A stretch of 63,994 bases of DNA, the filler included, from Jimgerdemannia flammicorona (taxonomy: Eukaryota), in NCBI GenBank assembly GCA_003990765.1. It is 3 parts of 3 records of this genome, joined end to end, with 100 filler letters (N's around TTAATTAATTAA, not from the genome) between each part and the next. Parts side by side here need not be neighbours in the genome. Positions count along the whole stretch, not along the records: positions 42,750 to 63,994 come from RBNJ01001497.1; 2 more parts are not named here. One strand, given 5' to 3'. Within the stretch, counting starts at the first letter, position 1; every line of letters begins with the position of its first letter. The notes beneath the pieces were generated by a model. It saw only the letters and a program-made list of their open reading frames with translations, was not told where the DNA came from and made no database searches. The translations under genes and the position numbers were made by a program. Of this stretch, positions 7,911-63,975 are shown piece by piece.

Positions 7911-10900
7911 TCAGTCCCTACTAAAAGATGGTCTGCCCTCAGACAATCTTTTAGTCATCATTCCAATATGCATAAGCATCTTCTACATCAATACTTGAAC
8001 CAGTATCTTCATTTAGATCAAAGTCACTCCACTCAACAGATTCTTCTTCTTCCTCTGGGAATAAGATTTCAACATAGTTAATGATGCTCCAGTAGGTAGC
8101 AGGGTTAAGAGCTAGAATGTCTTCTCCCAAATTGTAGATCTTGAGAGTCCTTCTTTCTGGCTTTTTGGTCTGGTTTTTTCAGATCTGACTTTGGTTATCT
8201 CCTCTCTTCAAAGTGTGGATTACATCATAACTGAGATGAATCTTCTGATATCTGCAGTCTCAGTAGTCTGGGTATCTTTCATGATTGCAATATTCCATTG
8301 CTTGAAAATGATATTCCCAGTTATTAATCTCTTATTGTCTTGGGAATCAGTATCCATCTTAGTTGTAAGTTTGGGGAAGGGTAGACAATAGATATATTTA
8401 TGTTCAGGTAAAGAAGCCTTGTCCTCTGAATCAACTTTGTAGCTTGGTGGTGACCTCTTGGAAGATAGTTGACTGTGCAACTATATTCAGAGATTCTGGT
8501 CTCTAGGGTCTCTGTTTCTCCTATTGGTCTAGTAGATGGCACTGATAGCAGTAGTCTCAGAGAGAGTAGAAGACCATTTGGTATGGACATCTTCCTAGCT
8601 GAAAAGTCTTTTCTTGGTGAGTTTCTTTCTTAGAGATAATGGTAATTATGCTGAGTCCTTCTTCTATATTCCAAGGGTCATTGTCTTCAGGTAGTGTCCA
8701 GCAAGAGTTATCTCAGAGAATGAGTTCAGGAACCTCTTCTTCTTTAGGTGCTTCTTGTTCAGGAACTTCTTGGTCAGGAGCTTCTTCTTTCTCATATGAT
8801 TCTTGACCCCAAATTGCTTATACCTCTGCAGCTTTGGTTGCAGGTGTTTCTGGAACATGTCTACATTTCTTCTTCTTCTTTCTACACTCTAGGCAGGCTG
8901 TACCAGGCAATTTCCTTGTCCCAATGATCTTGGAGGAGTGCTTGGGACACTTATATCTCTTGAGACAAATGAGATATCCTTTGATTTCTCCTGCAATGGC
9001 TCTGATGGTAATGGGGACAGTGTTCTTGGCCCATACATTATCTTCTGGTCTGTCATCTACCAGGTTAATTTGGAAATTGAGTCTGGGATCATTTCCATCT
9101 TTAGATTCTTCTTCCTCTTTTGTAGTAGATTTTTTACTACTGGTATATTCTTCCTGAATAGTAACCTTCTTCTTCTTCTTTGATTGCTTATAGCTGGTCA
9201 CCTTAACTTTATACTTCTTGTCTCAGTAGTTAAACTTGAGTACTTGTTGACTGATATCAATAACTATATTCATTTTCTTCATCCAATTGATGCTAAGAAT
9301 CATATCATAGATGATAGCTTCAGTGATAATAGCTTTTGGGATGAAGAACTGAATGTGTCTGAGGGAGATAGTGATGTTTCATACTTCTCCAAGAGGTGGA
9401 GTTTGGGCTCCATCTGCTACTATGATGCTGAGGTTGGATGGTCTATCAATGGGCCATTAGAGGGTATTCAGGAATTATTTAGCAATGACACAGACAGCTA
9501 CTCCTGTATCTATGAGAATTTTTGCTTTTATCCTTCAATGTCTCTATATAAGTAGGTACTGACATATCTCTCTGCAGCATAGATAGATATGGGGGCTAGC
9601 TCTTACTGTGGGATGGAGACTCAGCTAATGCTGGACCTAGTGGTTCTTAACAATTTATTTTCGACTCTAGCTAGTGTCAGTTACAGGAACTGCAGAAGAG
9701 AGACTTCTATCTTAGCTTCTTGAATCTTCTGCCAGGCTTCATTATAGATGTCTCTGGGCATAGTCTTTGGGGTGTACTTCTTCTTGGGCTTTGGGGCAGC
9801 AGGTTCCCATTCTTCTTATTCCATTTCTTCATCTTCTGGTGGCAGTTCATTTGTCTCAGGGACAAAAGGTGAGGGGGTTTGGGGAGGTGTCTCTATCTTC
9901 TCCTCTTTATATTCTTTGTCTTATTCTTGGATGATTCTTCTGCTGATATTCCTGGATGATCTTCCTATAGGTCTCTTCTTTTTTTCTGCTGAATAGATGG
10001 TTTTCCAGATGATAACCTTGATAAGGTACAAATCTAGGTTACTATAATCTTCACTGTTGCTTGCTTCCTCGAAATCTTTGACAGGATGGGCTTCAGTCTT
10101 CTTGTACTGAGTGTCATTCCTTCAGTTTGATGGTTCTGACTCCCTTCAGTCACTTCTTTTATTGTTACATTCAGTGGCATGGTGTCTGAATTGTTTATAG
10201 TGGAAGTATTGGACTTGGGCTCTGTCTCAGACAGGATATCTTCTTTCTTCTTGCTGATAGCTCCTGTTATCTCTGAGTGGATAACCTTGGCTCCTCTGTA
10301 GTGGATATCCTCTGTTGTCTTGGTAGCTCTGATTTTCACATATGGTGAGTTTTTCAATCTGTCCAACCAATCAGTCCAACTTGGAGCTAAGGTCTTGGAT
10401 TTTACTCCTATCCTTCTTTTCTTCTTTATCTGATCTTTTTTCTTTGAATCTCTCTTGTTCTTAGAGGAGTCCTTATAGGGCTTTGATCAGGATGTCTTCT
10501 TTATCTTCTTTCTTGTCATAGTTACTCCAGATAGTTTCTTGTCTAACATCAAAGAATTCTTAGGCTACATCTACTTGCTCTTCAGACCTTCTGATGCCTA
10601 GGGTACAGACATACTGAGCAATGTTTAGAGAAATCCCATTCATGAAGGTTATTGGATCTATGATGTTCTGGTTGGGGACATTAAATCCAGCTGTATGCAT
10701 TCTCTTCTGGATTCTTATAAAGAAGACTCTGAGTAATTCTCTAAGGTTTATCTTTATCTTCATGATGAATTCTTGGGCCTAGTAGTGGGTTTCATTTTCT
10801 GTATATTTTTTGATAAGCCAGTGGACCATGGCTATATACTCCAGCTTATAAGATGCTGCTGCTTATATCTGTCTCACCAGTTCTGAATGGAGGTCATTTG

Positions 10901-19198: not shown

Positions 19199-19199
<1 letters not shown>

Positions 19200-19231: not shown

Positions 19232-19233
<2 letters not shown>

Positions 19234-29183: not shown

Positions 29184-31519
29184 TGTCCTGGCCATCCAGA
29201 CTGCCTCACCTCCCCACTCCTTTGTCCATTCCAGTCTATCCAAGTCATCCTCACACCTGACATCCTGCAAGAGGAAGAGATCAGCCTCCAATCTCTTCAG
29301 CCAAGTAAAAATGTTCTTATGTCAATAAGTGCCCTGTAACCCATTCATGTTCAAAGAAAAAATGTTGGTTGTACTATTCATAGTGAAGAATGGTGTGTTA
29401 TCAAGCTTTCTCTACTGCTCCATGTTCATCTCCTCCTGCACCAAGTCCAGATTATGTTCCACGGTCACCACCTCCTCTTCAGCCCTCTGAGCCTCCAGTC
29501 CAGCCAACAGCTCATTCATCTCCCCATCTGCCTTCTCCTCAAATTCCTCGCAGTACTCCAGGCAGGCTTCCTGCCAGAGCTGCAGTCCATGACGCTTAGT
29601 CCAGCAGTATTCAGCCCTCTCTCCTGCGACTCCCACCATCTCTGCCTCCCGCTCCTTATCTACCTCATAGCCCTCCTCCTCCAGATACACTGCAAGAATT
29701 TCCGCCTTCAATGCCATCACCACCCCCTCCCCCTGCAGGATCCTTGCCCAATGCTCATTGCTCATTACCCTCAAATCCACCTCTCCCAGCTCCTCAGCCA
29801 CCAGGTTGTTCATCATCCTGCACATCCAAAGTAGGTTCCCCACCTCCTTTCCTCCAGGGGTCGCTGGCCTCCCACCATCCAGCATTGTGGTGTCAGCCCC
29901 AGCACTTGCAGCCTTGTCCCACTCCTCTGGTACATCCACCAGTTCCTCCTCACTGACCGCCACCACTTGTCCCCCTTTTGCTGTCTCCAGAACTCCAAAT
30001 TGCACTCGCTGGGCCCCCCACATCGGCACATCCTCCATCACCCTGCTTCAGGAAGCTGGGCCATGCCTGATAAGGAGAGTAGGGGTAGGGGAGTCCTCCC
30101 ATGTCTCATCCCAAACCTCTAGCATACCATCTACATATGGGTCCTTGCCAGTTGCCTCCCTGTTCTTGCCAGTCCCCTTCCCAGCACTCCCACTTCCCTC
30201 GCCTGCCCAGACACTTGCTTTGGCACCCCCCATGTCCACCATCCTGCTCATATCCTTCTGAGGTCCACCCTTCATCTTCACCAGCAGTTCCCTCTGTCTC
30301 CTTCGTCCCTGATCTCATTCCCACTGCTCCTTGCTTACTCGAATCCTCTTCCCATCCATCACCTCTAAGTACATCGCCTCCTCAAAGGCCCTCCAAGCCT
30401 TTGCCTGCCATTCCTCTGCACCGCTCAACTCTTCCAGTGCTTCCAATAGGTCCTCTTCCTCCTCCTCACTCTCCTTCACCCTCATCACCTTGCACATGAT
30501 CGTCCTCCAGACCATACCGGAAGGCCAGTCCCTTGCCTTCCTGGTGGCCTCCTTTCCTGCCAGCTGAATCCTCACATCCACATCTCTAGTCCTGAGCGAG
30601 GTCCCCTCCCAGACCCTGAATCCAATATCCACCACCTCTCCATACTCTGCCATGACCTCCTCAACTCTCTTCCTTATCTCCATCGCCATCACTGTATGCA
30701 CCCCTTTCACCAGCAGTTGGACCACTCTGGGGTCCCATTTCAGGCATTGTGCCATTGGAACACACACCTCCCCAACTATCAATCCAACCTTCAACACTTC
30801 CTTCAAAGGCTCAGCCTCCTCAAAGCCCACTTCCACTCCCTCCAGTCCCTTCAAAAACTTTATGGATGCCGCTCCAGCCACCTGCTTAGCAATTAGCCCC
30901 AGTATTATTTTCACCATCACTGCTAGGCCCCGGAAGCACAGTGTCACTGCAAACACTAAGATCGATTTCTTGAGTAACAGTGCCACCACTAGGCCCATCA
31001 CACTATCTGCCAAATCTCCTTGTCTCCCAGACCCCAGTCACTCAGCTGCACCATCCACAGTCACATCTGGATTTTTTTCCAGATTAGCAGTCCCATCGCC
31101 ATCAGCTGTCACACCCCCCCCAGCCACTATACCTTCAGCCCCACTGCCCCCTCGGCCAAGGGCTACTCCCCCATGTACTGTCGCCTTCTCCGTTTTCTTG
31201 CCTTTCCTCAACCAATCCTCCAGTCCCATCATCTGCCTTCTCCCCTTCACCATCTCAGCAAAGCTCGCCCTCCCAGATCCCTGTCCTCCACTACTGCCTC
31301 CTTCCCTACCATGTCCACCTGCCAGCAGCCCCCTCATACCTCCCCCCAGGCCAGGGCCTCTCCCCACATGCTGCCAGTTGAACGTGCCTGGGCCACCCTG
31401 CCCAGTACATACCTCAGATTGCCTGTCAGTCACCATGTTGCTAGTCTCTTTTCTCCAAAAACAATGTTGTAGGTGCTTTTCAAAAGTTGTGTAACCTGAG
31501 AGGTACCGGAGAGAGATGC
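29184..31519 (-). mobile_element. LINE copy 5: 5' UTR, ORF1 (31436-29412) and first ~65 codons of ORF2, interrupted by copy 4
   Basis: ORF1 fragments 31038-31436, 30315-31013, 29412-30041; ORF2 starts at 29381 and runs ...LLQDVRCEDD...AVWMART straight into the copy-4 5' UTR. Confidence 0.92.
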
Positions 31520-34500: not shown

Positions 34501-35522
34501 ATGTTCTAAGATTCCTGAGATTCTTATTGGTGTTTAGTGGTATAATAGTCAAAGCTGGATATCTGCAAGTGATACTGGTGATTTCCTTATTGGGACAGGT
34601 TCTTGGGTGTAGCAGCGATTTGTGTGTATGGCAGACTGGCAATTTGGTGGTTCTCCTTATACGATTTCTGTGTGACGATCTCTGTATAGTACAACGAATT
34701 CCTTAAGTATGCGATTTCTGGTGGGATGATCTTGGTGATATTCCTTATGTGAATTTGGCGGATGACTCAATTTGGCATGGATTCTCCTGATTTGGCTCAC
34801 TGGGAATAGTATTGGCGGCGGATTCTTCTTACTGGAAACGGATAACTCGGATGCCACAGATTCTTCCTAAATCAGCATGGTTCTGGGAAATAACTCAGAT
34901 AACTCAATGTTGTGGATTCTTCCTGAATTGGCTCTTCTGGGAATAATAACTCAGATTCTTTGACAAGTTATATCAAAGACTGGCTTCATTTGTGCAAATG
35001 AATCGCTGCAAAGTTGCATCAAGAGACTGACTTGTGGCAAGAATGGCAGGCTCTCTGGGAATACAGGTTTCTCTTCAAAAGGTGGTGAAGTACTTCCTTG
35101 AACTTGGCAGCAAACTTCAGGCTTATCTGGCAAGTGAACCAAGACTTTGTATCAGAAAGTGGACCAGAGTGAGAATAAGGGGACCAATGTTCAATCTTTA
35201 GAGACTTCTTTGGTTTGTGCTTTAATTTGGACTGAGGTTTATTCACTCTTGTCTCTGGGTATTTTATATGTGGTTGCTATCTGGTTGCTATGTAGCTAAC
35301 TATAGATTTGGTATTTGTGGCAAGTTGTGCAAGTTCTGTACAAGTGTGCAGGTCTTGCACAGGTGTGCAGATCTTGTACAGATATACAGGTCTTGCACAG
35401 GTGTACAGGTCCTGCACAGGTATACCTTATCTGGTAGTCTGGCTATTTATACAGTTTTCTGTAATAATGGTTGCTGTGTTACTATGCTATGTGTTTCACA
35501 TTATCTGGCTAAGTTGCTAATT
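31520..35522 (-). mobile_element. Gypsy family A copy 2: 5' LTR (34407-~35522), gag, protease and part of the spacer; cut by the LINE nest
   Basis: Colinear with 8740-13140; gag LPTFAGCPEEDSREFFDGIEG; CFHC..F.YYANEC knuckle at ~32945-32995; IDTG protease at ~32280-32305. Confidence 0.9.
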
Positions 35523-42749: not shown

Positions 42750-42751
42750 AG

Positions 42752-47118: not shown

Positions 47119-48697
47119 TGTAATAGTGACTCCAGAATGATGATATCAGCATAGGAGACAGCCTTTCCTTGCAAGCTACCAGATTGAAGTACAAGAAAGA
47201 TCATATAGCATACAAGATGAGCAATGATGACCAACTGTGAGTCATTGTGACCACAGTATGGATATCTTGAGGAATATAAAAGAAGGATCAAAGAACTACA
47301 GTAGTTACAACTAATAAGACCCACTAATCTCAAAATAGCTCAAAGACTTACCACAAACAAAATACCTATTGCTCACCAAACCTCAAGATCAAGAAACCAC
47401 TAAGGCATCTCAGTTGAAGAAAGGATGTTCCAAGATATCAGAAGAGCCAAGGACCTACTCAAGAAGGACTCCTAGAATCAACCTGGGTACTGGTGACCCT
47501 TATCATTATATTCTCTACTATTGTGAAATGGAAACAAGAATTACCATTACTACTGAATGCCTCCAAATGTGGCAGGAGTATGAAATAGGAAACCTCCTCT
47601 GCCAGGAGTTCCCACAGGCTAGCACTCAAGAGCTATAAGATGCCACTTCTATGAATATACATGAAACAAGGATAGCTAAGAAGATCCATCAGATCTTCAG
47701 GCATACACTATGATCAATCCCCAACTTGGAGTATATTAGAGTCTCAGATTTCAGAGATCTGTCAGCCAGCTATATTAATGCACTAGAAGCCAGGGTAGCT
47801 ACAGAAACCCAGTCCACTATCACTCTCGACAATGATGAAGTAGAAGACTTCTGGTATTCCATCCTCCAGGACAACCCAGATCAATTTTTACAAGGATTGA
47901 TCTCAGTATTCCAAGGCCCAAGCATCCAGATTAGACCTCTTCAAGACCCCACATTTGTTCTCTATTTTGTAGAAGAGAACCTTATAGACTGAAGAGCCCC
48001 AGATCTCCTTGTTCCTACTGCCACTGCCACCAAACATGATGATGTCATCAGCAATAACATCATCCCATATGACATACACAAGATGCACAACATACACAAA
48101 GCATGTGAAATATGCAAAATATACAACCTATGTGACAATGATGAATTTGCAGACCTCATCTCCTTCAAAGATATCCTGATCTCTAATAAGGATGAAGTCC
48201 CTATGGTCTTGAACATTCTGCTCTAAAAAAAAGTCCTTTGGTTACACTGAATAATACCAGCACTGGTATTCTGATATGATACCAAATAATGCCAGCACTG
48301 GCATTCTGAGGTAATACTGAATTATACCAGCATCCTAAACCTATACAATCATCAGTACCAACCTTGGAACTTAGCAGTTTTTCCTGTCCTGGCATTTTAT
48401 TTTAGTTATTGGAATTTATATTTAGCTTTATATCTTAACAACTATTGAATTATATTTTGTATAAATACCCCTCTTATTTCCTTTAAAATAAAGTCAGTTC
48501 TGGTTCACTTACATACAATTTCTTGCAAGCAATCTAAGAGATAACAAGACAGTTTAAAGATAAGAAGTTTGAGGACTATAAGATCTTGGGAAGGCACTCC
48601 AATAAGAACTTGCTTATAACAAACTTGAGTTAGTCTAAGAGATACACCTTGAAGAGAATCTGACATATTTGAAGGACTCGGTGACTACTACATGACT
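47119..48697 (+). repeat. Gypsy B 5' LTR (long U3, TATA-like box at ~48459)
   Basis: Direct repeat of 54366-55902. Confidence 0.92.
47369..48226 (+). pseudogene. Relic ORF inside the Gypsy B LTR (U3), unknown product
   Basis: ~285 codons in one frame with only three internal stops (TAA 47636, TGA 47711, TGA 47990); the TAA is CAA in the 3' LTR. Confidence 0.6.
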
Positions 48698-50902
48698 ACT
48701 TAGTGCCTATTGGCTGGTGATTCTAGACAATCCCTCACTTTCAAGCTGAAAAATGAATAATCACCACAACAACTACTCTGACTACAAGAGTTACCCCTGC
48801 AAGAATTCAAGACAAGATAGAAATATGTTCCCCCACATTTTTTAGATATACTACTAAAGAGTCAATCCTGACCTTCATTGAAGACTTTGAACAATTCACC
48901 ACTGTATAAGCCCTTGGTGTAGATGCACAATTGGCTCTTCTATCAGTCAGCCTCAGAGGACCTGCCAGGGATAAGTTCAATGTAGCCACTATTACTAATA
49001 ATGGTGCAGCCAAACTTGCCAACATGAAGGCCTTTCTCAGAACAATATACTATACTGAAGAGATCAAGCAAGCTCTCAAGGAACAACTCAATACTATCTG
49101 CCAGAGACTCAGTGAAGATCCCAACTCATTCTATATCTGAATCTGTTACCAGATTGTCTTGGCTGACTATGATGACTACCTCAAGGAACAAACAGTGGAT
49201 TCAACCTTCCTCAAAGGAGTTTACTCTGAAATTGTCCTAGCAATCTGGTCTACCACAGCTGCACTGACCCTTGATCAGAAAGTGGTCTTTGCATAGAGAT
49301 ATTGGACTGCCAGACATCCTGCCAAACACTTAATGAAGAAAATAACCAGCATCAAGATGGAGCCATCAAAGCCAACTAGTATTATACCTGCCATAGTTGT
49401 AAATAGACAACCATCCCCACCTACCCCCAAGACAACCAAAGCTGACCCAGTGGAGGAACTTGCCAAGCAGTTCACTGAGATGACTGCATACCTTAGTGAT
49501 GTTGTTATAGAAGTCCAAAGTACCAACAGAAGACCAGTGCAGAGATTTGCAGCTGCTACAGAAGAATGTAATATCATATACTTCAGATGTGGAGAAGAAG
49601 GCCACTATGCAAAGAATTGCATGACCAAAATAAGACATACAGCCCAACTAAGCAATGTTTACAAAACCAGAGAACAAACCAATACAGTAGTTATCAAGGA
49701 GATTGGTGATACTGATGATGAAGAATACTATAAAGAGCTTGAATTCTACCCTGCTACTGAAGGTACCAGAACCTGGTCCAAGCCCTATGATAAGAAGAGC
49801 AACAGCAAGCCAGTTGGGAGACCAAAGAAGACCCCAGCTGTCACTATTCAAAGTAAGACTCAACCTGAGGAGATTGATCAAGATATGGAGTTAGATAAAG
49901 CTATCTACCAAATCATTGAAGGTACTACTCCAGTCTCAGGAGAAAGTGAAAGCAAGAAGGAATAGAAGCTGCACAAGACCAAGATCCACCAGTATGATAT
50001 CTATAAGGACCTCAAGGAACAGAAGGTCAATGCTACTTTTGGACAACTAGCTGAAGTCTCTGCCTTCAGACAGCAGTTGAGAGTAAGACTTGCAACTACT
50101 GCTAAGAATCAAGAGTACAATATTGTAGAAGCTCACAATGCACAGAAAGAATCAGAAGACTTAGGTGAAGAATCTGAAGACCAGTGCAAGATATCAGCCT
50201 ATACCCCATATCAGATCGAAGATTGTATCTTTGATACCATTATTGATACTAGTGCTGGAGGATGTCTCATGAGTAAGAAGACAATTGACCACCTAGGCTG
50301 GGACATTGAAGAGTCTACCAAGATAGTCTATATTACAGCAGATGATATATGAGCTATCCCTCTTGGCAAAATCTGAGAAGTCCCCATCAAGATAGAAGAG
50401 CTACCATCCCAGTAGATGTGATTATTACAAGCACCACCAACTATGACATCCTCATTGGCAACCAATGGCTTCACAAGGCCAAGGCCATCATTGACCTCAA
50501 TGCCCAGAAGATGCAGATCAACTATAGAGGAAGAAAGGTATGAGTCTCTATCAATGTCTACAAAAGAGTCCTACCAGACATGGAGAAAGGAGATGAAGAG
50601 GACACAGAAGTCTTTATGCACTCAGTGAACAAGAACAAGAACAAGACACTCAAGCTCACAGATGAGCAGTGGTACAACAAGATTATTGATAGCTATGCCC
50701 CTCAAGGAAGATGTCCCCATGGTCTAGAATGTACTGCTCTAAACACCTGAATGACTGCTGGTCCTGTATCAGTGAAGTCAGAAAAATCTGCCAACAGAAA
50801 CATGAGTAAGAAGCCACTGAAGCAAAAAGGAAAGCTGAAGAAGATGACCAGCCCCCTGAGCTTTAAGTCAACAGTAATGATGAGGAGGAACAAGAATCAG
50901 AC

Positions 50903-51319
50903 ATCACCCTCAAGGTCAAGAAGTTTCACTCTAAAGCCAAGATTCCAGAATACAAGACTAAAGGAGCCATAGGAATAGACCTTGCCAGCATTCAAGATGC
51001 TACCCTCAAACCACAGACCACTACCCTACTTGGCACCAGAATTGGAGTCAAGCTACCAGAGAACCATACCAGAATTATCAAGACCAGAAGCAGTCTGGCC
51101 AAAAGTGAAATCTCAGTTGAAGGAGGAGTAATTGACTCTGATTACACTGGTGAGATCTTTCTCATAATCAGAAATTACAACTCCACTACCCCATTCAAAA
51201 TCAAGAAACATGACAGGATTGGCCAGATGCTGATCTACAAAATCAAAAAGCCCAAGATCACTGAAGCCATCAAACTCATCAAGACTAAGAGAGAAGAACA
51301 AGGCTTTGGATCTACTGGA
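50903..51319 (+). CDS. dUTPase domain of Gypsy B pol, stop-free and in frame with RT
   Basis: All five trimeric dUTPase motifs: GAIGIDL, TRSSLA, GGVIDSDYTGEI, DRIGQM, REEQGFGSTG. Confidence 0.93.
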
Positions 51320-54300
51320 AGAGGAGCCTATGCCACCACCAAGATTACCAAACTTGAGTACAAGAATGACAGAGATCAGAATAAGCACACATATACCATT
51401 GGAGAAAACTTTCCCCTGGAAGAACAATTCCTTAAGATCCTGTACCAGAATGAAGGAGTACTTGCTACAGACTTCAGAGATATCCACAATCAAGAACCCA
51501 AGTACTACCATGAAGTTGACACTGGTGATACCAAGCCCATCTATCAAAAAGCCAGATCTATGCCACCTGCCTACAGAGAATGGTTGCAAGCAGAACTTAA
51601 GGAAATGGAAGAAGTCAGAATCATCAAGCAAGCTATCAGTCCCTGGGCTTCACCTATTGTCCTTGCCCTGAAGAAAGGAAGCAAGCTTGGAGAGTTTGTA
51701 CTAAGACTCTGCATTGACTACAGGAAGCTCAATACAATTACTAAGAAGAATAGGCAGCCCTTGCCAAATATTCAAGAAATCCTTATCACTCTTGGAAGCA
51801 AAGCCAAATACTACACCACCTTGAATCTGTTCTCAGGCTTCCATCAGATTGGTCTCACTCAAGATGCCAGTGAGAAATCAGCCTTCATCACACCTGATAC
51901 CACCTATATCTACCTGCAAATACTATTTGAAATGTGCAAATGATGAACAGAGTCTTTAGTAACAAGATTGGAAAATGGCTCTTTGTCTATGTTGATGATA
52001 TAATCATCTTCAGCAACACTGCACAGAAATATGTCAATCATATACAGCTAGCCCTCAAGAAGCTCAAGGAGTATAGCCTCTACATCAAGCCCAAGAAATA
52101 TAAGTTTGCAGCTCAGGAAATTGCCTACCTAGGATACCTCATCAACCAGACTGGAATCTACACAGACCCCATAAATATTGAGGCTGTTGTAGTCTACCCA
52201 AGACCCAGAATAGCTACAGAAGTCCATGCCTTCCTTGGACTGACCAGCTACTATAGAAGATTCATCAAAGGATACTCCAACATTGCAGCATCTATCTATG
52301 AGCTACTGAAGAAGGAAACCAAATTTGAATAGACTAAGAAATGCCAAAAAACCTTCAATGAACTCAAAACCAGATTGATCCAAGCACCTATCCTCAGAAG
52401 ACCAGATTGGAGTCTAGAATTTATCCTGCAGATAGATGTAAGTGCTATAGAACTTAGAGTAGTCCTAGTTCAGAAGAAAGATAGACATGAATATATCATC
52501 TCCTATATAAGCCAAGGTACCTATAGAGTAGAACAGAACTATGAGTCATGCAAGCTTGAATGCTTAGCAGTAGTTTGGGCAGTAGACAAGTTCTACTACT
52601 ACCTAGCTGGAAAACACTTCACTGTTCAAACAGACCATTCTGCTCCTGGCTATTCCACACTCTGAACCCCAAAGGAATATATGCCAGATAGATCTACAGG
52701 CTGCAAGAGTATGACTGTACTATCAAGCACTGCTCAGGAAGAACCAACACCAATACTGATGTACTCTCAAAGATATCCCAAAACACTCCAATCAAGACTA
52801 TTCAACATGAATAAGGAGCTATACTATGGATTAATCAGCTATCTTGGGCAGCAGAAGATGCCTAATCATCTTGAACTCTAGACAATCACTATCATCAACT
52901 GGACTTGGAAACAGTTTGAACTAGACAACACTATACTCAGAAAAGAAGAAAAACTAGTAATACCTGAATACAAGAAGTATCAAGTAATAAAGGAAGTATA
53001 CAAGTAAGGATACTTAGGAGGAACCAATACATACAACAAGGCAAGAAGAACTATATAGTGGCTCAAAATAGAAGAAGATCTGTACCAATTTGTCAAAGAG
53101 TGTGACAAGTGCCAAAAACAGAAATAAGATCAGCAAGACCAGATATCCGGGTCATCAAGAATTGAACCTATCCCCTTCCACCACATCACAATGAATATCA
53201 TTGGACCACTACCAGTAACACTATCAGGAAACTGCTATATTATAGTTATTGTAAACCTCTTTATGAAATAGATAGAAGTAGGAGTATTACAAGAAGCTAA
53301 TGCCCTCTCTATAGTCAACTTCCTGTACTGAGAAATCATATACCACTATAAGACACCAAAGCAAATTACAACAGATCATGGCACTAAATTTATCAATGGA
53401 TTCCATGAGATAATATATCAGAAATACAAGATTCAGTATATCAAGACTACCACATACCACCCTCAAGGAAATGGACAGATAGAGAGAACCAACAAGACCC
53501 TCAAGAACATTCTGGTGAAGATCTCAGAGATATATGAGAATTGGGATAACTATACCAACTGCCCTCTCTGTCCTATAAGATATATAGTCACAGAGTACAC
53601 ACTTTACCCCAAGAGAACTGCTCTTCAGAGATGAAGATTCTGATGGAACCTCAGCCACAAATCTAGACCTAACTTGGAGATGGGTTGATGCAGAAATCCA
53701 GAGACTACACCAAATCAGAAAGAAGGCTGAAGATTATATCATCAAGTCACAAGTACTGATAAGGAAAAATGCAGAAAAGAATCACAAGACCCTAGAACCC
53801 ATCCAAATTGGAGAAAAGGTCCTACTGTATTGAAATATGATAGAAGTCTCATAATCATAAAAACTGGAGCCCAAATGGAAAGAACTCTTCTATATGTAAG
53901 ATTTCAAGAGAACTACCTTCTAACTTAGAAAAATCTTAGAGACCATACTGCCTACTATAGTACATAGGAACAGACTTAAGAAGTACTATGAACCTATATT
54001 AGAGAAGTAAAATGTAATGACCATCTGCGAGGTTCTAGTCTATGAATCATAACAGCATATCCCATGACCAGCAGACTATCTGTCTGGACCATTCTCTAAA
54101 GGATACAGTACCAGCAATTACTCATCCATAAGACTTTCAAAGCCAGAGGAGTTTGAACTATCAACTGATTAATCAAGATCAGAATCAGGCCCTTGCTCTA
54201 TATGAAGGGAGCAACTCTTTACCATCACACCAAAATATAAAGAGAAGATGCTAGCCTATAAATATCCCTTTTCAACCTCTTGCCAGAGGTTATAGGATCA

Positions 54301-54365
54301 GCAAATTTTTCAGCACTGGACTAACGAATAAGGATGCTTGAGAAGATCTTTATTCAGGAGGAAGA

Positions 54366-55902
54366 TATAATGGTAACCCCAGAATGATGACATCAGTATA
54401 AGAGACAGCCTTTTCTTGTAAGCCACTAGATCAAAGTACAAGAAAGATCATATGGCATATAAGATGAGCAATAATGACCAACTGTGAGTCATTGTAACCA
54501 TAGTATCAGTATCTTGAGGAATATAAAAGAAGAATTAAGGAACTATAATAGTTACAACCAACAAGACCCACCAATCCCAAAATAGCTCAAAGACTTACCA
54601 CAAATAAAATGCCTGCTGCTCACTAAACCTCAAGGTCAAGGAACCACCAAGGTACCTTAGTTGAAGAAAGGATGTTCCAAGACATCAGAAGAGCCATGAG
54701 GATCTGCTCAAGAAGGACTCCTAGTATCAACCTGGGTACTGGTGACCCTTATTATTATATTATCTACTGCTATGAAATAGAAACAAGGATCACTATTGCT
54801 ACTAAATGGCTCCAAATGTGGTAGGAGTACCAAATAGAAAACCTCCTCTGCCAGGAGTTCCCACAGACCAGTACTCAAGAGCTACAAGATATCACTCCTA
54901 TGGATATATATGAAACAAGGATAGCTAAGATCTATCAGATCTTCAGGTATATACCATAGTCACTCCCAACTTAGAGTATGTTAGAGTCTCAGATTTCAGA
55001 GATCTGTCAGCCCACACTAGAAGCCAGGGTGGCTATAGAAGCTCAGTCTACTATCACTCTTGACAGTGACAAAATAAAAGACTTCTGGCATCTCATCCTC
55101 CAGGACAACTCAGATCAATTTCTATAAGGATTGATCTCAGTATTCTAAGGCCCAAGCATTTAGATTAGATCTCTCCAAGACCCCACATTTGTTCTCTATT
55201 TTATAGAAGAGCCTTGTTCCTACCACTACTGCTGCCAAATGTGATGATGTCATCAGTGATGATGTCATCCCATGTGACATATGTAAAACATATGATATAT
55301 GCAAAGCACATGATATATGCAAAATGCATGACCTATGTGACAATGATGAATTTGCAGACCTCATCTCCTTTGAAGACATTCTGATCTCTGATGAGAATGA
55401 AGCCCCTATGGTCTTGAACATTTTGCTCTAAAAAAAAGTCCTTTGGTTATACTGAATAATGCCAGCACTGACATTCTGATGTGACATCAAATAATGCCAG
55501 CACCAGTATTCTAAGGTAACACTGAATTATACTAGCATCTTGAACCTGTATAACCATCAGTGCTGACCCTAGAACTTAGCAGTTTTTCCTGTTCTGGTAT
55601 TTTATTTTAGTTATTGGAATTTATATTTAGCTTTATATCTTAGCAACTATTGAATTATATTTTGTATAAATACTCCTCTTATTTCCTTTGAAACAAAGTC
55701 AGTTCTGGTTCACTTACATACAATCTCTTGCAAGCAATCTAAGAGATAACAAGATAGTTTAAAGATAAGAAGTTTGAGAACTATAAGACCTTAGGAAGGT
55801 ACTCCAATCAGAACTTGCTTATAACAAACTTAAGTTAGTCTAAGAGATATACCTTGAAGAGAATCTGGTATATTTGAAGGACTTAGTAACTACTACATAA
55901 CA
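54366..55902 (+). repeat. Gypsy B 3' LTR
   Basis: Direct repeat of 47119-48697, preceded by PPT, ends ...ACATAACA. Confidence 0.92.
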
Positions 55903-58048
55903 ATATATATTTGATACTCTTTACATTTTTTATTTCAAAATTTCAGAACTTTTAATACATTATATAACTTTTAGATAGTAAATAAATACTTATAAATATC
56001 AATAATTATTTTTATAATTAAGTTCTTATATATATATAATCTAAAAGACTCTAGTATATATATAAGTTAGTCTTATTTTAATCTTAAAAAGAAAATAAAT
56101 CTCAAAATATCTCTAAACTCTATCTATTTATAATAATAGAGTTATTAACTAAATTTGATCTTTATTAAAAAGAGAACTTAAATTAATCATATACTATATT
56201 TAAGTAAACCTCTAGCTTTAAGGATTAAGTATATATAAGAATAGCTTTAAAGATTGAGCTTTTAGAAAATCAGACTTAGTAAAGATATTATTTTTTAAAT
56301 ATTCTCCTATATATATCTAATTAAGAATATTATAAGTAAAATATTAGATTTTTGAATACTTTCAGATATTATTAGAATTTATATCTTAATTTTATAATAA
56401 TCTTATAAAATTGGAAATATTTTTAATTTAGTATTATTAAATTTACTAATTTTTTAATATTTAGATAATATATAAATATGACAATTTCAATATGAATATA
56501 CTAATTTCTAATTTTATTAAAATAATAATATTGTAATGTACCTAGCTCAATGGAGGCAAATTACAAGATTAGTGATTGATATAGTTTGGCTTGAGCCCAC
56601 AGTTACTTTATTAAAAGTAACAAAATGTTTTAAGATTCCTAAGATCCTTAGTGGTGTTTAGTAGTACAATAGTCAAAACTGGATATCTGCAAGTGATTTG
56701 TGTGTTGATTTCCTAATTGGGACAGTTCTCTGGGTATAGCAGAATGGGTTTTCTTCTTAGATCAACTAGAAATTGATGGAGTTTTGTGTATAGTATGATG
56801 ATCTCTGTATAGTGCGATGATCTCTGTATATGATAGTCTGTCAATTTAGCAGTTCTTCTTCTTGGGTGGTAGGTGATCTCTGTGTGATAATCTTGTATAG
56901 CACAACCAGGTTCCTTATATAAGATAATCTGGCAATTTGGCAGATAACTCAATTTGACACAGATCTCCTTAAATCAGTGGGCTTCTAGGAATAATAACTC
57001 AGATGGTGTAGATAATTCAAATAACTGGGAATAATACTGATGGCAGATTCTTCACTAGGAACAAATAAATAACTCAGCTATTGCAGATTCTTTCTGAATT
57101 AGCAGCTTCAACTGAGAATGTGATAGATAACTTAGAAATAGCAGATGATATGGATTCTTTCTAAATCAGTAGCTCTCTGGGAATACTACTCAGGTGGTGC
57201 AGATTCTTCCTGAATTAGTGGCTTCAACTGAGAAATAACTTGGATTCTTGGCAAGTTATATCTAGACTGGCTTTGTTTATACAAATTGATCACTACAAAG
57301 TTATGTCAAGGGACTGGCTTATGGTAAGAATAGGCAGGCTCTCTGGGAATGTGATGAATAACTCAAAGGGTAGTAAAGTTCTCCTTGAACTTGGTAACAA
57401 ACTCGGATTCTTCAGGCTTAGTCTAGCAAGCATACCAATAGCACAGCTTATTCCTTAAGCAGTAGATTCTTCAGACTTAGTCTGATAAGCATACTAATAG
57501 TATAGCTTATTTCTTAAGTAGCAGGTTCTTCAGGCTTAGTCTGGTAAGCATATCAATAATTCCAAAGATAGTGAAGTTCTTCACTCAAACTTGGGGGCAA
57601 AATCTTTAAGCTTTGTATTGGAAAGTAGACTGAAGTAGAAAGGAGACCAATGCTCAATCTTTAGAGGCTTCTTTGGTATTTGTATTTCAGACTGAGGTTT
57701 ATTCACTCTTATCTCTGGGGTAATTTATATAGTTGTAGTTACTTTCTGGTTGCTATGTGGCTAACTATAGATTGCTATCTATGGCAAGTATGCAGGTCTT
57801 GTATAGGTGTATAGATCTTGCACAGGTGTGTAGGTCTTACATGGGTGTATAGATCTTACACAGGTATATAGGCCTTGCACAGGTATACCTTATCTGGTAG
57901 TCTGGCTATTTATATAGCTTTCTGTAGCAATGGCTGCTGACTACTATACTATGTGTTCATGTTATCTAGCTAAGTTATAATTTGGGTGGTACATTCTGGT
58001 TTGTCACATCAGTCCCCACTAATAAATGGTCTGTCCTCAGACTATCCT

Positions 58049-58570
58049 TTAGTTATCATTCCAGTATGGGTAAGTATCTTCTGTATCAATATCTGTTCTA
58101 TCATCTTTGTCATCTATATTATAGTCGCTCCATTCTAAGGGTTCTTCTTCTTCTTCTGGAAATAGGATTTTGACAGCATTAGTGATGCTCAGATAGGTGG
58201 CCAAGTTCATTCTGTATACATCCCACCAGGAGAATTGTACTTGTAACAAGGCTGCAGGGTTACATTTGTAAAGAGTATAGAGCCTATCTATAGCAGTGAC
58301 ATCTCTTCTTGATAGTCCTGTAGTACTTCAGATATATACTTGTTCTGAGACTAAAAGGTTCTGCAATTGTTCTCCAATTGTATAATGGGCCTAGAGTTGG
58401 TGGACCTGTAGCAATCATCTGATCAGGACAAGATTCACTTGATAAATCTGGATCTTCTGGAGAGTATTTCCATTGATTTCTCAGAATTGGGGTAGGGGAA
58501 CAGGCAGTGATTGGAATGAGCTGAGGACAAGAGTTTGAAGGTAGTTATCAACTCTCTGATTTATGAAAAA
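58049..58570 (-). pseudogene. Extra ORF (ORF3) between integrase and PPT in Gypsy A, ~170 codons, acidic C-terminus, unknown function
   Basis: Single frame with four stops (3 TGA, 1 TAG); C-terminal ~50 aa conserved at protein level in A1 (7950-8105). Confidence 0.7.
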
Positions 58571-61434
58571 GGTATATCTTGAGGTGATTGATGTGCACTG
58601 GTATCTTCAGAGTTCATCTATTCATACTTCTTAAATAGATACTGGTTCCTCTGATGTTGTATACAAGATCCTTCCCATTTGAGTTCCAATTTGGTGGCAA
58701 AATTTGTTTCAATCATGCTTCTCCAAACTAGTACTTGATCTCCAATCTTGACCTTCTGGTCCTTCTGTTTATAGTTATAGTACTTCCTTTGTCTTTCTTG
58801 GGCTTTGATAATCTGACCTTAAGCTTAATTATGTAACTGTTCTGCCTTCTTGAGGAGGTCTCCAAGATTCTCATGGTCAGCAGTTCTGGTTTTCTTAGCA
58901 AACATCATTTCAAATGGCTTTTGTTTGGTGGAGACAGCAGGGGTGTTCCAAACTTTCCATAGAATCTCAGATAAGCAGAGGTCCCAATTGGTAGGATTGA
59001 CTTGGGCAAGTTCTTTCTTGATGGTCTGGTTCATTCTTTCTGTCATACCATTGGTCTGAGGGTGGTATAATATAGTCCATTTGAGGTGGATCTTGTGAAT
59101 TCAGGCATAACTTATGATTATATTATTGATAAATTCTGTGTCTCAGTCAGAGATAAGTTCTTCTGAGGGTCCATATCTGAGTGTAAGTCTATGGAGAAGG
59201 CCTACAATGGTTAAAGCATCTACAATTTCCATTGGGAAAGCCTCAGGCTACTTGATAAGATGTTTCACGAATACAAGGATGTATTTGTTCTCCTTGGTAT
59301 AACTGGTAGAGGTCCAATTACATCTATTCCCCATCTCTGAAGGATGTTGTCTAGTGGTGTAATTGGTTGTAGTGATGCTTGATAGTTCTTTCTTCCTTAA
59401 TATTTCTGGCAGGTGTTATATTTCTTAAGTATGTCCCAGACTTATGTTCTGAGGTTGGACCAATGTTGGTATATTGTTCACAGCTTTTTTTCTATATTTA
59501 CCTGTCCCTGGTGGGCTTTCTGATGTTCTTTTCAGATAAGATCTTCTTGTGCCTTAATGGTCTGAGGAGCTTCTTTTAGGATATAGTTTCTTAGGACACC
59601 CTTCTTCTGGTTCATTAGGGCTGACAGGAAAGTACATCAATATTGTTGTGAGCTTTCCCTGCTTTGTGGATGATGGTGATCTTGTAATCCTAAAGGATAA
59701 GAATCCAGCAGGCTAGAATTCTGGTAGGTTCCTTATGGTTGAATTGCCATTTGAGGGCTGCATGATCTGTGATCAGAGTGAACCTTTTTCTGATGAGATA
59801 GTGCTTGAACAGGGTGACTGCCCATATAACTACAAGGCATTTCAGTTTAGTGCTACCATAGTTCATCTGCTGCTAATTGGTATCTCTCTTGCATAAGCTA
59901 TCATATAGTGTTGTTGGTCAGGTCCTTCTTAGGCTAGAACTGCTCTAAGGCCATCTTTAGAAACATCTGTATACAAGATAAATGGCTTCTGTAGATTGGG
60001 GTGCACAAGAATTGGTGCTGTAGTCATGCAGTTCTTGAGTTCTTTGAAGGCTTTTTCTTGTGATTCTGTCCATTTGAATGATACTCCTTTCTAGAGAAGG
60101 ACTTGGATTGGGGCAGCAATTTGGACAAAGTTCTTGATAAACCTTCTGTAGTAGAATACTAGCATCAAGAATAATAATGTTTCCTTTGGGGTTTTGGATG
60201 CTGGCCAATTGTTGATCTTTTTGGTTTTCTTTGGGTCTGTATGAGTTTCTTCTTTTAAAACTATGAATCTAAGGAATTTGAGTTTCTGTTTCCCAAAGTA
60301 GCATTTCTTTGCATTTAGTCTCAAGTGGTTCTGGTGGGTGAGCTCAAAGAATTCCTCTAGGTAGTGTAGGTGTTCTTCGAAATTTGCTAAATAGATGTTG
60401 AAATTGTCCATATATACAATCAGACAGTAGTGGATCAAGGGAGTATAGACTGAATTCATCATTCTCTGAAAGGTGGGAGGGTATATTACAAAGTCCAAAG
60501 GATATTCAGAGGTATTCAAACAGTTTCCCTAAAGCAAGAAAGGCTGTCTTTTGAATGTCTTTGGGGTCCATAGAGATCATGTAGAATCCTGCAAAGAGGT
60601 CCATACTGCTGAAGTATCTGGTATCTTATAACTGATCCAAAAGATCATCAATTCTGGGCAAAGGATAGGTATCTTTTTCAGTAACTAAATTGAGTTTTCT
60701 GTAATCCACACAAAGTCTCTATCCTCCTTTCTTTGGTACAATAAGTATAGGACTGGCCCAGGGGCTGGTAGAGGGCCAGATGACTCCATTGTCTAAGAGT
60801 TCTTGAATGTGCTCCTTTTCGAATGTTTTCAAGTAATGGGGTATTCTATAGGGTTTATGCCAGATGGGTATTGCATTTCCTGTATTTATGCTATAGTGAT
60901 ATAATGGGTTATATAGCAGGTTGCCATAATTAGTGGTGAAGATATCTTGATATTTGCTGAGAAGTTCTACTAGTTGTTGCTGTTGTTGGGCTGTCAATTC
61001 TTCTCCAATATTGGTGGAAGGCTTCACTGTCTCCTGGGTCGCAGAGGGGCCTTTCCTTTCTTCTGAGACCTTTTGCCATTTCCCAATAGGTTTAGTTCAT
61101 AAACTTCTCTATGAGTTCAGTTGAGAAAAGGCACCAGATGTCCTATGATGGTTCCTTTGGGCAAGATAATAGTCTCTCAACTTTGGTTGGTTCCTCAGGA
61201 GTGCACTGGGTTCATCTTGTCAGAGAAGGTGTGTCCTTCTATATTCAGGTATAGGATATCTTCATTTGGTTTGAAGAAAAGGTTTCTGAAGTCAAATGGT
61301 GCAAAGATTTTGAAGGTGGTTTGTTCTCCAGGCTCTAGAATGAGATTCTTATGCAGTTTGACTGGTTGGCAGTACACTTGCTGGAGAACATTCCTCTTGA
61401 GGTAGTTGACCTGAAGGAGATATACTTCCTTCTT

Positions 61435-61850
61435 ATCTGAGCTCTCAAATCCTTTGGCTTGTCTTGTTTCTTTAGTTAATTCAGAGACTTCCTGTAATTG
61501 TGGGGTCTTGATCTTCATTAAGACTGCTTGGGTAATCTTCTGTCCTCTAATGATTCAGTGCCATTCTGTACTACTGTTATATAGAATGACCTTGATTTCA
61601 CCTGTATATCCTGGGTCAATAGTTCCTCCTTCTATGGTTATTTCTTATCTGGAAAGTCCAGACCTTGAGGTTAGTTAGATGTAAGCTCCTTGGGGTGGCT
61701 GTATGGCTAATCCAGATCTGATCATGAAGGTTTTTCCAGGCTTGATAGATTCATCCTCCAGACTGTAAAGATCACATCCTATATCCTCTGGGTGGGCTTT
61801 GGTCAGGAGTTTGGCCTTAGGATGCAGCAGGACATACTGGGCAATATCTC
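61435..61850 (-). pseudogene. dUTPase domain of Gypsy A pol (three in-frame stops)
   Basis: DIGCDLYS, TSRSGLS, GGTIDPGYTGEI, QKITQ, RQAKGFESS. Confidence 0.9.
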
Positions 61851-63832
61851 TGCTGAGTTTGGACTGACCTAAGACTGAAGCTCCACTAGCAGGGAGCCTC
61901 TAAGCTCTAAGGTTGAGGTGTGGCCATCTGGCTCCAGTAGAGGGGTCTCAGAGATAGTTGATTCCTCTCTTTTCTGTAGGGTCTAAGGCTTCCATGAAGT
62001 TGGTGGCATCTTCTATCTATCCTTGGTGGGTTGTATATCTGATGAGAGCTTGGATGTCTTCTCCTAAATCAAAGATCTTGAGGATCCTTCTTTCTGGCTT
62101 CTTGGTCTGGCAATTTTGGATCTGGCTTCTATTGTCTCCTCTCTTCAAGGTATGGATTGCAACATCATGACTGAGGTGAATCTTCTGGTGTCTGCAATCT
62201 TAGCAGTTTGGATGTCTTCTATGGTTATAATATTCCATTGCTTAGAAATAATGTTCCCAGTTGTTGATCTCTTATTATCTTGGGAATCAGTATCCATCTT
62301 GGTCATAAGTTGGTGGAAGGGTAGACAGGGGATAGACTTCTGTCTGGGTAAAGAAGTCTTGTCCTCTGAATTGGCTTTACAGCTTGGTGGTAACTTCTTG
62401 GAAGGTAGTTGACTGTGCAACTGTGTTCAGGGGTTCTGGTCTCTGGGGTCTCTGTCTCTTCTGTTGGTCTAATAAATAGCACTGATAGCAGTAGTCTTGG
62501 AGAGAGTAGAAGACCATTTAGTAGTGACATCTTCCTAGCTGAAAGGCCTTTTCTTAGTGAGTTTCTTTCTTGGAGATAATGGTGATTGTGCTGGGTCCTT
62601 CTTCTATATTCCAAGGGTCATTATTTTCAGATAGCATCCAGTGAGGGTCATCCCAGGGAATAAGTTCAGAGATCTCTTCTTCTTTAGATACTTCTTATCC
62701 AGGAACTTCTTGGTCAGAAGTTTCTTCTTCCTCAGATGATTCTTGTCCCCAAATTGCTTGTACTTCTGCAGCTTTGGCTATAGGTATTTCTGGAATATGT
62801 CTGAATTTCTTCTTCCTTTTTCTGCACTCTGGGCAGACTATGCCAGGTGAATTCCTTGTTCCAATAATTTTGGAAAATTCTCAGAGCACTTGTGTCTCAT
62901 GAGGCAGGTGGGGCATCCTTTGATTTCTCCTGCAATGACTCCAATAGTGATAGGGATGGTGTTCTTGGCCCATACATTATCTTCTGGTCTGTCATCCACT
63001 AGGTTAATTTGGGAATTGAGTCTGGGGTCATTTCCATCTTCAGATTCTTCCTCTTCTTCTGTGGTAGATTCTTCACTGCTGGCATATTCTTCTTGGATAG
63101 TGATCTTCTTCTTCTTCTTTAATTGCTCATAGCTGGTCACCTTAACTCTGTACTTCTTGCCTCAGTAGTCAAACTTGAGTACTTGTTGACTGATGTCAAC
63201 AACTGCTTTCATTTCCTTTATCCAGTTGGTGCCAAGAATCATGTCATAGGTGACAGCTTCAGTGACAATAGTTTTGGGAATAGAAAACTGAATGTGTCCT
63301 ATGGAAATAGTAATATTTTGTACTTCTCCAAGGGGTTGAGTTCGGGCTCCATCTGCTACTATGATACTGAGGTTGGATAGTCCATCAATGGGCCATTGGA
63401 GAGTGTCCAGGAATCATTTGGCAATGATACAGACAGCTGCTCCTATATCTATGAGGATTTTCACCTTTTGTCCTCCAATATCTCCATATAGATAAGTGCT
63501 GACATGTCTTTCAGCTGCTTGGACAGAGATGGAAACCAGTTCTTGCTGTGGGATTGGAACTTGGCCAGTGCTGGATCTGGTGGTTCTCAGCAGTTTGTTT
63601 TGGACTCCAGCTGGTATCAGTTATAGGAACTGCAGAAGGGGGACTTCCATCTTGGCCTTTTGAATCTTCTGCAAGGCTTTATTGTCGATGTCTCTAGGTA
63701 TGGTCTTTGGGGTGTACTTCTTTTTAGACTTTGAATAGCAGGCTCCCATTCTTCTTGTTCCATTTCTTCATCTTCTGGTGGTAGCTCATTTGTCTTAGAG
63801 ATAAAAGGTAAAGGAGTCCAGGAAGGTATTTC

Positions 63833-63834
<2 letters not shown>

Positions 63835-63875
<41 letters not shown>

Positions 63876-63975
63876 TCACTTGGACTCCTTCTTTATTTCC
63901 TGTCTATGAATAAGTATACAATATCACCACCCACTATCTGATCCCCATAGGGGGGCCCCTCCCCATCTCTTCATG
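63835..63975 (-). mobile_element. Very short 5'-truncated LINE with ~40-nt poly(A) inserted in Gypsy A3 gag
   Basis: T-run 63835-63874; minus-strand AATAAAGAAGGAGTCCAAGTGAC-poly(A); G-rich GGGGCCCCCCTATGGGGATCAGA resembles other LINE 3' ends. Confidence 0.75.

Follow-up and report, generated by a model that had tools for sequence, protein, structure and literature searches.

The DNA analyzed here is a 63,994-nucleotide stretch (filler included; hereafter, the window) of the genome of Jimgerdemannia flammicorona (assembly GCA_003990765.1), in which positions 42,750 to 63,994 come from the record RBNJ01001497.1. The window overall is a mosaic of transposon copies. One of them, Gypsy A, is a Ty3/gypsy long terminal repeat (LTR) retrotransposon whose pol encodes protease (PR), dUTPase, reverse transcriptase (RT), RNase H, and integrase (IN) in the order PR-dUTPase-RT-RNaseH-IN. 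A further open reading frame, ORF3, follows the integrase end of pol and precedes the 3' LTR. In this study, the ORF3 stretch of the window was found to be a dead copy of a third gene that is genuine and belongs to a dUTPase-bearing Ty3/gypsy LTR retrotransposon lineage. We hold with high confidence that ORF3 is a real, separate, and selected gene. The best explanation overall, which we regard as probable, is a conserved third gene, dead in the window, that would encode a dimeric adaptor with a motif-bearing acidic tail. The window copy by itself is ordinary, one further broken gene among transposon remains; the interest lies in the ORF3 family.

A first-pass annotation of the window had read at this place a peptide of about 170 codons with four stops, all of the C-to-T type. 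Translation of positions 58042-58582 on the minus strand reproduced this peptide letter for letter, and 171 codons were counted from the codon aligned with the start of the relatives (58562-58564) to the TAA at 58049-58051. The start position is occupied by ATA, not ATG. The four in-frame stops are TGA at 58481-83, TGA at 58415-17, TAG at 58391-93, and TGA at 58328-30; intact relatives have Arg/His, Arg/Gln, Gln, and Arg, respectively, opposite these stops. In the DNA of the relatives, the TAG is opposite CAG/CAA and the first TGA is opposite CGC/CAC, and the remaining two TGA are opposite AGA/AGG in the two loci whose DNA was compared. Hence, the number of stops was as annotated, whereas a C-to-T origin for all of them is plausible and was borne out for half, since two TGA face AGA/AGG. 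The frame is beyond chance because database relatives exist and the substitutions are codon-phased. The pol frame, which is open for 86 codons (58284-58544), was considered as the true reading and rejected because relatives align to the annotated frame over residues 1-145. Compared with its metagenome relatives in a junction alignment, the window pol carries a 5-nt deletion at 58669/58670, just after the integrase Trp-Glu-Gly codons, and a 7-nt deletion at 58565/58566, immediately before the ORF3 start position. The two deletions account for the apparent frame-hopping of the window pol, and stops in the pol frame lie at 58545-58550. With its start codon lost, four stops, and a frameshifted pol in front of it, the window ORF3 is a dead copy.

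A phmmer search of 1,835,955,588 representative proteins returned five matches at E <= 0.001 (best 7.5e-46), all of 65-157 aa. A profile search of a 5.8-billion-protein collection gave 17 matches among 809 candidates. Four relatives are intact and full-length: P0008 (171 aa), P0009 (172 aa), P0010 (169 aa), and P0012 (183 aa), the last with a short N-terminal extension. P0008 is 76% identical to the window ORF3. Full-length members start with M-(N/T)-Q-R-(I/V)-D and finish with (Y/H)-W-(N/D)-D-(D/N) followed by the stop. No protein longer than 183 aa carrying ORF3 was found in either protein collection searched, and no pol-ORF3 fusion was found among 8000 scored candidates of 322-2000 aa, the latter being weak evidence. 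All relatives come from metagenome assemblies, and the five clusters examined have one member each, labelled at most 'hypothetical protein'.

Metagenome contigs were scanned with two peptide patterns. Of the 505 stretches matched, three were confirmed as relatives (L001, L002, and L003), and ORF3 comes immediately after integrase in all three loci. In L003 (4101 nt), the dUTPase, RT-RNase H, and integrase are open and are followed by ORF3 in the -1 frame. The L003 integrase is intact and ends with ...VHINRLKIYLHKP-stop or, in a longer form, with ...WEGPYLVHNIRGTSIYIRSMDGRILRTPVHINRLKIYLHKP-stop. Among named proteins, none exceeds 50% identity to its RT-RNase H; the matches are from arachnids, fishes, frogs, plants, Rhizopus, and Rhizophagus. 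The protein identity of ORF3 to members of the L003 type is about 46-57%. In intact relatives, ORF3 is a separate frame of 169-172 codons between integrase and the polypurine tract. By position, it falls in the class of separate frames between pol and the polypurine tract/3' LTR, which is a positional class and not a homology family.

For the window copy, L001, L002, and L003, differences were counted pair by pair on codon alignments by the Nei-Gojobori method, and gapped or stop codons were skipped. In the ORF3 frame, the proportion of nonsynonymous differences (pN) was 0.186-0.301 and that of synonymous differences (pS) was 0.581-0.761 across the six pairs; omega was 0.07-0.23 or incomputable because pS was saturated. 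For the same six pairs, omega in the other two frames was 0.75-2.24. Because pN is far below pS in the ORF3 frame alone, the substitutions are not neutral and the annotated frame is correct. ORF3 is held by purifying selection while synonymous sites are saturated. It evolves faster than integrase, for which pN against L003 was 0.02-0.18 per 60-codon block. In the window, a second copy of the element, A1, retains the ORF3 tail; over 55-56 codons, the comparison of Gypsy A and A1 gave an omega of 0.25 in the ORF3 frame versus 0.43 and 0.90 in the others, and the gag-protease region common to both copies gave 0.35 in its best frame. The first-pass annotation had proposed a dN/dS comparison across copies and had put forward a selected small soluble protein that stands in the env position and is not env. 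The omega values obtained here, the intact relatives of 169-183 aa, the start codon of their own, and the lack of a membrane segment are in agreement with that proposal.

Relative to pol, ORF3 is in the -1 frame. In L001 and L002, the ORF3 ATG and the pol TGA overlap as ATGA; L003 and the window have ATAA there, with ATA at the start position. ATG is therefore present in two of the four DNA copies and ATA in the other two, which are decayed. Among the database proteins covering the site, 11 of 12 have Met at the start position. The second codon is AAT, ACT, or ATT (Asn/Thr/Ile), A-initial throughout because the overlapping TGA requires A. Since the integrase has a conserved end and stop of its own, ORF3 has its own start, and no fusion was found, ORF3 is not an integrase C-terminal extension of the known type, an alternative that the first-pass annotation had itself raised. 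An extension of the chromovirus type is in the frame of the integrase and without its own start, whereas the integrases of L003 and L002 end in stops and ORF3 is in the -1 frame with an ATG.

Two routes of expression were considered. LTR retrotransposons usually express their ORF3s from spliced messages (PMC5408684). The present ORF3 may be expressed from a spliced subgenomic RNA, a route to which we would give slightly less than an even chance. Termination-reinitiation at an overlapping stop and start occurs in caliciviruses, influenza B, and the hypovirus CHV1 (PMC5972666; PMC2699510), and the caliciviral and influenza B systems have a UGGGA-containing tether upstream (PMC5972666). The likeness is in the layout, a long frame whose stop overlaps, as ATGA, the start of a short frame downstream. 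A stop overlapping the restart AUG, as at a termination upstream ribosome-binding site, was found in L001 and L002. The difference is that viral reinitiation uses a tether (PMC5972666), an upstream element for the 40S subunit with UGGGA as motif 1 and the paired motifs 2/2*, whereas the UGGGA that lies 125 nt upstream of the ORF3 overlap in all four sequences is within the conserved Trp-Glu-Gly codons of integrase, which makes it uninformative, and no covarying structure was found at the junction. No LTR-retrotransposon example of termination-reinitiation was found in the literature searched. Judged from the overlap, expression of ORF3 by termination-reinitiation at ATGA is possible and somewhat less probable than splicing.

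The -1 frame over the last ~45 pol codons was also observed to be open and Met-initial (MGRTIPCTQ...) in several copies (L003:3699-3855, L002:1060-1194, and, in part, window 58565-58700 on the minus strand). The pS of pol is about halved over this part. A cis element, an upstream start, or chance may account for this.

The composition of ORF3 was compared in the four intact members. Each has 0-1 Cys, and the top 19-residue Kyte-Doolittle mean is 0.94-1.36, in line with the annotated lack of a transmembrane segment. The body contains 11-13 Lys/Arg versus 6-10 Asp/Glu and is Gln-rich. The tail, comprising the last 36-39 residues, contains 15-18 Asp/Glu, no Lys/Arg, and two Trp. No Pfam family, the chromodomain included, matched the window copy at E <= 0.1, which also agrees with the first-pass annotation; the best E for the four intact members was 0.062, to unrelated families, and neither a DNA-binding nor an env family was among their Pfam matches at E <= 10. 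PF00385 (chromodomain) matched neither ORF3 nor the integrase pieces of Gypsy A in Pfam. The PDB contained no sequence relative (best match E 0.075). AlphaFold2 models built from 16 and 14 sequences were all-helical with a disordered tail. The ESM Atlas has its own model of P0008, with a predicted template-modelling score (pTM) of 0.68 and a predicted local distance difference test (pLDDT) of 0.76; P0008 has no structural neighbor there above a template-modelling (TM) score of 0.37, and its feature matches of 0.91-0.93 are to unnamed or unrelated clusters. A VIA-align scan of 48,161 PDB representatives gave best Z scores of 5.3 and 6.2, which are below the noise level for helical models; hence, no fold was assigned to ORF3.

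Homodimer prediction gave an interaction score from aligned errors (ipSAE) of 0.64 in three of three runs versus 0.02 for the best of three controls. The runs had a pLDDT of 71-72, and at least 92% of contacts were common between them. In the predicted interface, a long helix (residues 30-84) pairs in antiparallel orientation, with residue 52 opposite residue 52. Among solved structures from microbes, 21 of 30 homodimers and 0 of 23 monomers passed the mark used for a dimer; among those from eukaryotes, the numbers were 17 of 29 and 0 of 30, respectively. This calibration is small and took in no predicted or disordered chains. The model supports the pairing of the ORF3 product as a homodimer without demonstrating it. 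As modelled, the product would be a cytosolic or nuclear, cysteine-free, all-helical protein. Two copies of it would pair in antiparallel fashion along their long central helix (residues ~30-84), and each would end in a disordered tail of 36-39 residues with two nearly invariant Trp.

Motifs in the tail were counted by a script scan, and two rows outside the pattern of the script were read by eye. Of the 13 tails covering the site, 12 have LFP with an acidic run after it, and the remaining one has LFS. All 12 tails that cover the first Trp have it; Glu precedes it in 10, and Leu, Ile, or Val stands two residues before it (p-2) in 11; the full (L/I/V)-E-W-S-(D/E) motif, with an acid at p-1 and p+2 and Ser at p+1, is found in 10 of 12. 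Three residues from the C-terminus, the last Trp is conserved in 11 of 12 tails, the twelfth being TAG in the decayed L001. The C-terminal motif is of the YW(N/D)DD type (Y/H-W-N/D-D-D), and the spacing between the first and last Trp is 21-23 residues. Such conservation within a disordered acidic stretch suggests docking motifs.

Ligands of the tetratricopeptide repeat (TPR) domain of kinesin light chain (KLC) resemble these motifs. KLCs engage their own TPR domain with a conserved 'LFP-acidic' stretch, the 'W-acidic' motifs of SKIP (TNLEWDDSAI, with Leu at p-2), calsyntenin, and vaccinia A36 bind in that groove as well, and JIP1 binds KLC through a 'Y-acidic' extreme C-terminus (PMC6214655). 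A W-acidic motif is defined as a Trp flanked by Asp/Glu, with Leu/Met at p-2, in a disordered region (PMC6214655). The kinesin-binding region of vaccinia A36 can be replaced by W-acidic motifs (PMC6214655). Look-alikes of all three motifs (LFP-acidic, W-acidic, and Y-acidic) are found within 37 residues of the ORF3 tail. The resemblance is confined to short motifs: L-E-W-x-D with a hydrophobic p-2, LFP with an acidic run, and an aromatic-acidic C-terminus. We propose that the ORF3 dimer would be an adaptor, whose N-terminal and helical part, which is conserved, would dock on nucleic acid or on a component of the element, and the two acidic tails would offer short linear motifs (LFP-acidic; L/I/V-E-W-S-D; and C-terminal Y/H-W-N/D-D-D) to capture a host factor. 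That ORF3 is a homodimeric soluble adaptor with a motif-bearing tail seems to us somewhat better than an even prospect. The first candidate for the host factor would be a TPR cargo receptor of the KLC type, whose capture would couple element particles to microtubule transport; KLC as the actual partner, suggested by the motifs, is doubtful. A more specific version, in which ORF3, made by AUGA reinitiation, would be a dimeric motor adaptor that mimics three kinds of KLC ligand and activates kinesin-1 to move particles or pre-integration complexes, as vaccinia A36 does for virions, is decidedly unlikely. If true, it would represent a retrotransposon with its own motor adaptor.

Other readings of ORF3 were weighed against the adaptor. 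The -1 register would suit a Pol-ORF3 fusion, with ORF3 as an integrase C-terminal extension that replaces the chromoviral chromodomain and is reached by -1 ribosomal frameshifting within the pol/ORF3 overlap. So would a -1 frame that is open for 16-45 codons before the ATG in L003, P0003, P0012, and P0013, and a drop of pol pS to 0.21-0.22 in the last 60 codons versus 0.32-0.51 in five earlier blocks (L001 and L002 versus L003; the two are close kin, and their drop is nearly one observation). The corresponding pS of the window pol was 0.42 in the last 60 codons versus 0.46-0.66 elsewhere. Such a drop would be compatible with a cis element, with a splice acceptor, or with the -1 frame being used ahead of the ATG. 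However, Met is conserved at the start position as described above, stops close the -1 frame 20 (L001) and 7 (L002) codons before the ATG, inspection of the overlap by eye showed no slippery heptamer (X XXY YYZ), and no conserved downstream RNA structure was found. Neither protein search returned a long ORF3-bearing protein, the five phmmer matches being of 157 aa or less and the 8000 longer candidates containing no fusion. An integrase extension of this kind is thus improbable. Location between pol and the 3' LTR, the env position, would also suit a remnant of env or of another membrane protein, but the four intact members have no hydrophobic segment and 0-1 Cys, full-length members are merely 169-183 aa with both ends conserved, and no Pfam env family was matched. 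We consider an env origin extremely improbable.

Foamy-virus Tas and HTLV (human T-lymphotropic virus) Tax are transactivators, and ORF3 may likewise be read as a transactivator of its own LTR, with a dimeric helical DNA-binding body and an acidic/aromatic activation tail. The acidic tail with aromatics and no Lys/Arg, the predicted homodimer, and a U3 tandem array of 18-19-bp units in all three LTR versions (Table 1) are consistent with it. So is the match of residues ~50-110 of model 1 to helix-turn-helix domains at Z 3.7-4.5 (DnaA domain IV, sigma region 4, phage Mu C and Mor, DeoR, CENP-B, and ParB/VirB). With model 2, however, this pattern was absent; the top 50 were generic helical bundles, with sigma-28 alone at rank 34. 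Every Z is below the noise level for helical models, both models are of low confidence, no DNA-binding Pfam family was matched at E <= 10, and the body is not basic. The likeness of the tail to an activation domain, which the first-pass annotation had pointed out, is one of acidic/aromatic composition alone, and its LFP-acidic, LEWSD, and C-terminal YWxDD motifs suit short linear motifs of other classes no less well. U3 tandem repeats are also common in LTRs without an element-encoded activator. A transactivator is therefore unlikely, and the weak helix-turn-helix likeness was dropped as a finding and kept as a lead. The two nearly invariant Trp in a disordered tail rich in Gly, Asp, Ser, and Asn might alternatively point to a counter-defence protein, with the acidic tail acting as an Argonaute hook against RNA silencing or as a restriction-factor decoy, and the heavy transition decay of the copies is consistent with host silencing. 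GW or WG dipeptides are found in 0 of 12 tails, the Trp contexts being EWS and Y/H-W-N/D; a strict Argonaute hook is thus absent. A counter-defence role is quite improbable.

Several points weigh against a separate gene for a dimeric adaptor as we propose it. All ORF3 relatives are unnamed metagenome fragments, and most proteins that start at the ORF3 ATG are gene-finder calls, for which a Met start is obligatory. Owing to the open frame upstream of the ATG and the pS drop, a pol-ORF3 frameshift fusion or an upstream start keeps some probability. No conserved RNA structure was found at the pol/ORF3 junction by RNAalifold (covariation term +0.38; 1 of 37 pairs compensatory). The confidence of the AlphaFold2 models was low (mean pLDDT 50.3 and 53.7), and the dimer comes from a single-sequence model of a family never solved, for which about 1 in 10 monomers may pass. 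The function is drawn from motifs alone, and acidic Trp motifs serve other classes of ligand as well, including Arp2/3 activators, adaptor-protein ears, and activation domains. In addition, ORF3 has Ser after the Trp where W-acidic motifs have Asp/Glu, and its LFP is followed by Glu/Lys, whereas that of KLC is followed by Asn/Ser (PMC6214655).

The features of Gypsy A and of the related copies are summarized in Table 1.

Table 1. Coordinates of ORF3, Gypsy A, copy A1, and the U3 tandem arrays in the window.
Feature	Position	Strand	Basis or remark
ORF3 pseudogene, 171 codons + TAA	58049..58564	minus	Translation; database homologues
Acidic-tail codons of ORF3 (ILFP-EEEEE, PLEWSD, ...EDTYPYWNDN)	58052..58168	minus	Stop-free; kept in copy A1
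Gypsy A pol 3' end, decayed (integrase C-terminal GPY/F region, ...KLELKWEG / VHINHLKIY...)	58545..58818	minus	
Gypsy A remaining pol, heavily broken	58600..63620	minus	Domain matches
Gypsy A protease	63162-63620	minus	
Gypsy A dUTPase	61195-61899	minus	Each fragment under the Pfam cut-off
Gypsy A RT	60091-61096	minus	
Gypsy A RNase H	59690-60090	minus	
Gypsy A integrase	about 58600-59600	minus	
Spacer, ORF3 stop to 3' LTR, 40 nt	58009..58048	minus	Compared with A1
Gypsy A 3' LTR, TGTGAC start at 58008	56535..58008	minus	Far end approximate, by similarity to the A1 LTR
Copy A1, final 51 codons of ORF3 + stop	7951..8106	minus	Similarity; upstream partner sequence in L003
Copy A1 LTRs	6363-7910 and 11630-13176		LTR start at 7909
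U3 tandem array, Gypsy A (4.8 copies)	57794-57884		
U3 tandem array, copy A1 (3.6 copies)	7709-7772		
U3 tandem array, copy 3 (about 5 copies)	35321-35425		

The purine-rich AGTGGGGACTGA at the end of the spacer is a candidate polypurine tract. The frame that lies upstream of the Gypsy A protease contains a run of about 13 Lys codons, a poly-A tract (63617-63892, minus strand). On the strand of the element, the U3 tandem arrays of the family lie ~125-215 nt from the LTR start and look like an enhancer-type repeat; the array units of Gypsy A and copy 3 are similar, and those of A1 are unlike them.

The first-pass annotation had described the tail in copy A1 as having the same length and stop position as in Gypsy A. 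The A1 tail is real, with 57 aligned residues (7954-8121, minus strand) that are 56% identical to those of Gypsy A, and its stop is likewise 40 nt before the LTR, but it is one codon shorter. The gag-protease part of A1 (8108-9870) matches positions 62045-63809 of Gypsy A. An internal deletion joins this part to the ORF3 tail in frame at about 8106/8107 (...LGEDILAL/NPATYWSII..., the slash marking the join). The left half of the junction is native pol sequence upstream of dUTPase, as in L003. Nothing was drawn from the in-frame join because it has a one-in-three chance and stops are nearby in A1. Asp-Ile is common to both sides of the join and suggests template switching at short homology. A1 is a non-autonomous deletion derivative without dUTPase, RT, RNase H, integrase, and two thirds of ORF3. 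Copy 3 (31531-35522) ends before pol and is without the ORF3 tail.

A second dUTPase-bearing Ty3/gypsy element is present in the window on the plus strand (47121-55898), with LTRs at 47121-48693 and 54368-55898 and its dUTPase (50867-51943) between protease and RT. No ORF3 relative was found in this element by tblastn or in its post-integrase frames. A G+C-rich block (13800-31500; 49-54% versus 25-40% elsewhere in the window) breaks the gypsy copy ending at 31531. The block contains several RT frames of the non-LTR type on both strands, in part as inverted duplicates (17047-18900 versus 23566-21712) that are 73% identical. An open frame at 20704-21195 on the plus strand matches proteasome subunit beta type-4/beta-7 over residues 7-50 and 83-152 (best E 6e-26), and mammalian and yeast chains score equally. 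The ~32 unmatched codons between the two blocks are probably a short in-frame intron, and the frame looks like a host gene or gene fragment amid transposons.

Extra frames after pol are a known kind, including errantiviral env, the ORF3s of bdelloid rotifers (PMC5408684), and the 'additional ORFs' of fungal Gypsy elements, whose function is unassigned (PMC2864245). The ORF3s of bdelloid rotifer Ty3/gypsy-like elements resemble the ORF3 described here in being family-specific frames between pol and the 3' LTR of dUTPase-bearing elements, without a fusion glycoprotein (PMC5408684). They differ in being GDSL esterase, DEDDy exonuclease, coiled-coil, or transmembrane proteins (PMC5408684), none of which is matched by our ORF3 in Pfam, and in that spliced messages are typical for them (PMC5408684), whereas the ATGA overlap offers another route here. 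The dUTPase-bearing fungal Gypsy elements likewise have this domain between PR and RT, and an extra frame is present without explanation in some; the study describing them concerns chromodomain elements, whereas Gypsy A is without a chromodomain, and their extra frames were compared by description only (PMC2864245). No description of the ORF3 family was found in the open-access literature searched; it matches none of the named ORF3 types and has no name in the sources queried.

Extra genes of LTR retrotransposons reveal the dealings of these elements with their hosts, such as targeting, trafficking, escape from silencing, or becoming infectious, and few of the non-env extra genes have a known function. 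The ORF3 family is small and without a Pfam or PDB relative, yet it has been kept intact while synonymous sites were saturated. Because its most conserved parts resemble docking motifs, the partner should be easily fished out. If the ATGA overlap is used, ORF3 would represent termination-reinitiation of the viral type in an LTR retrotransposon.

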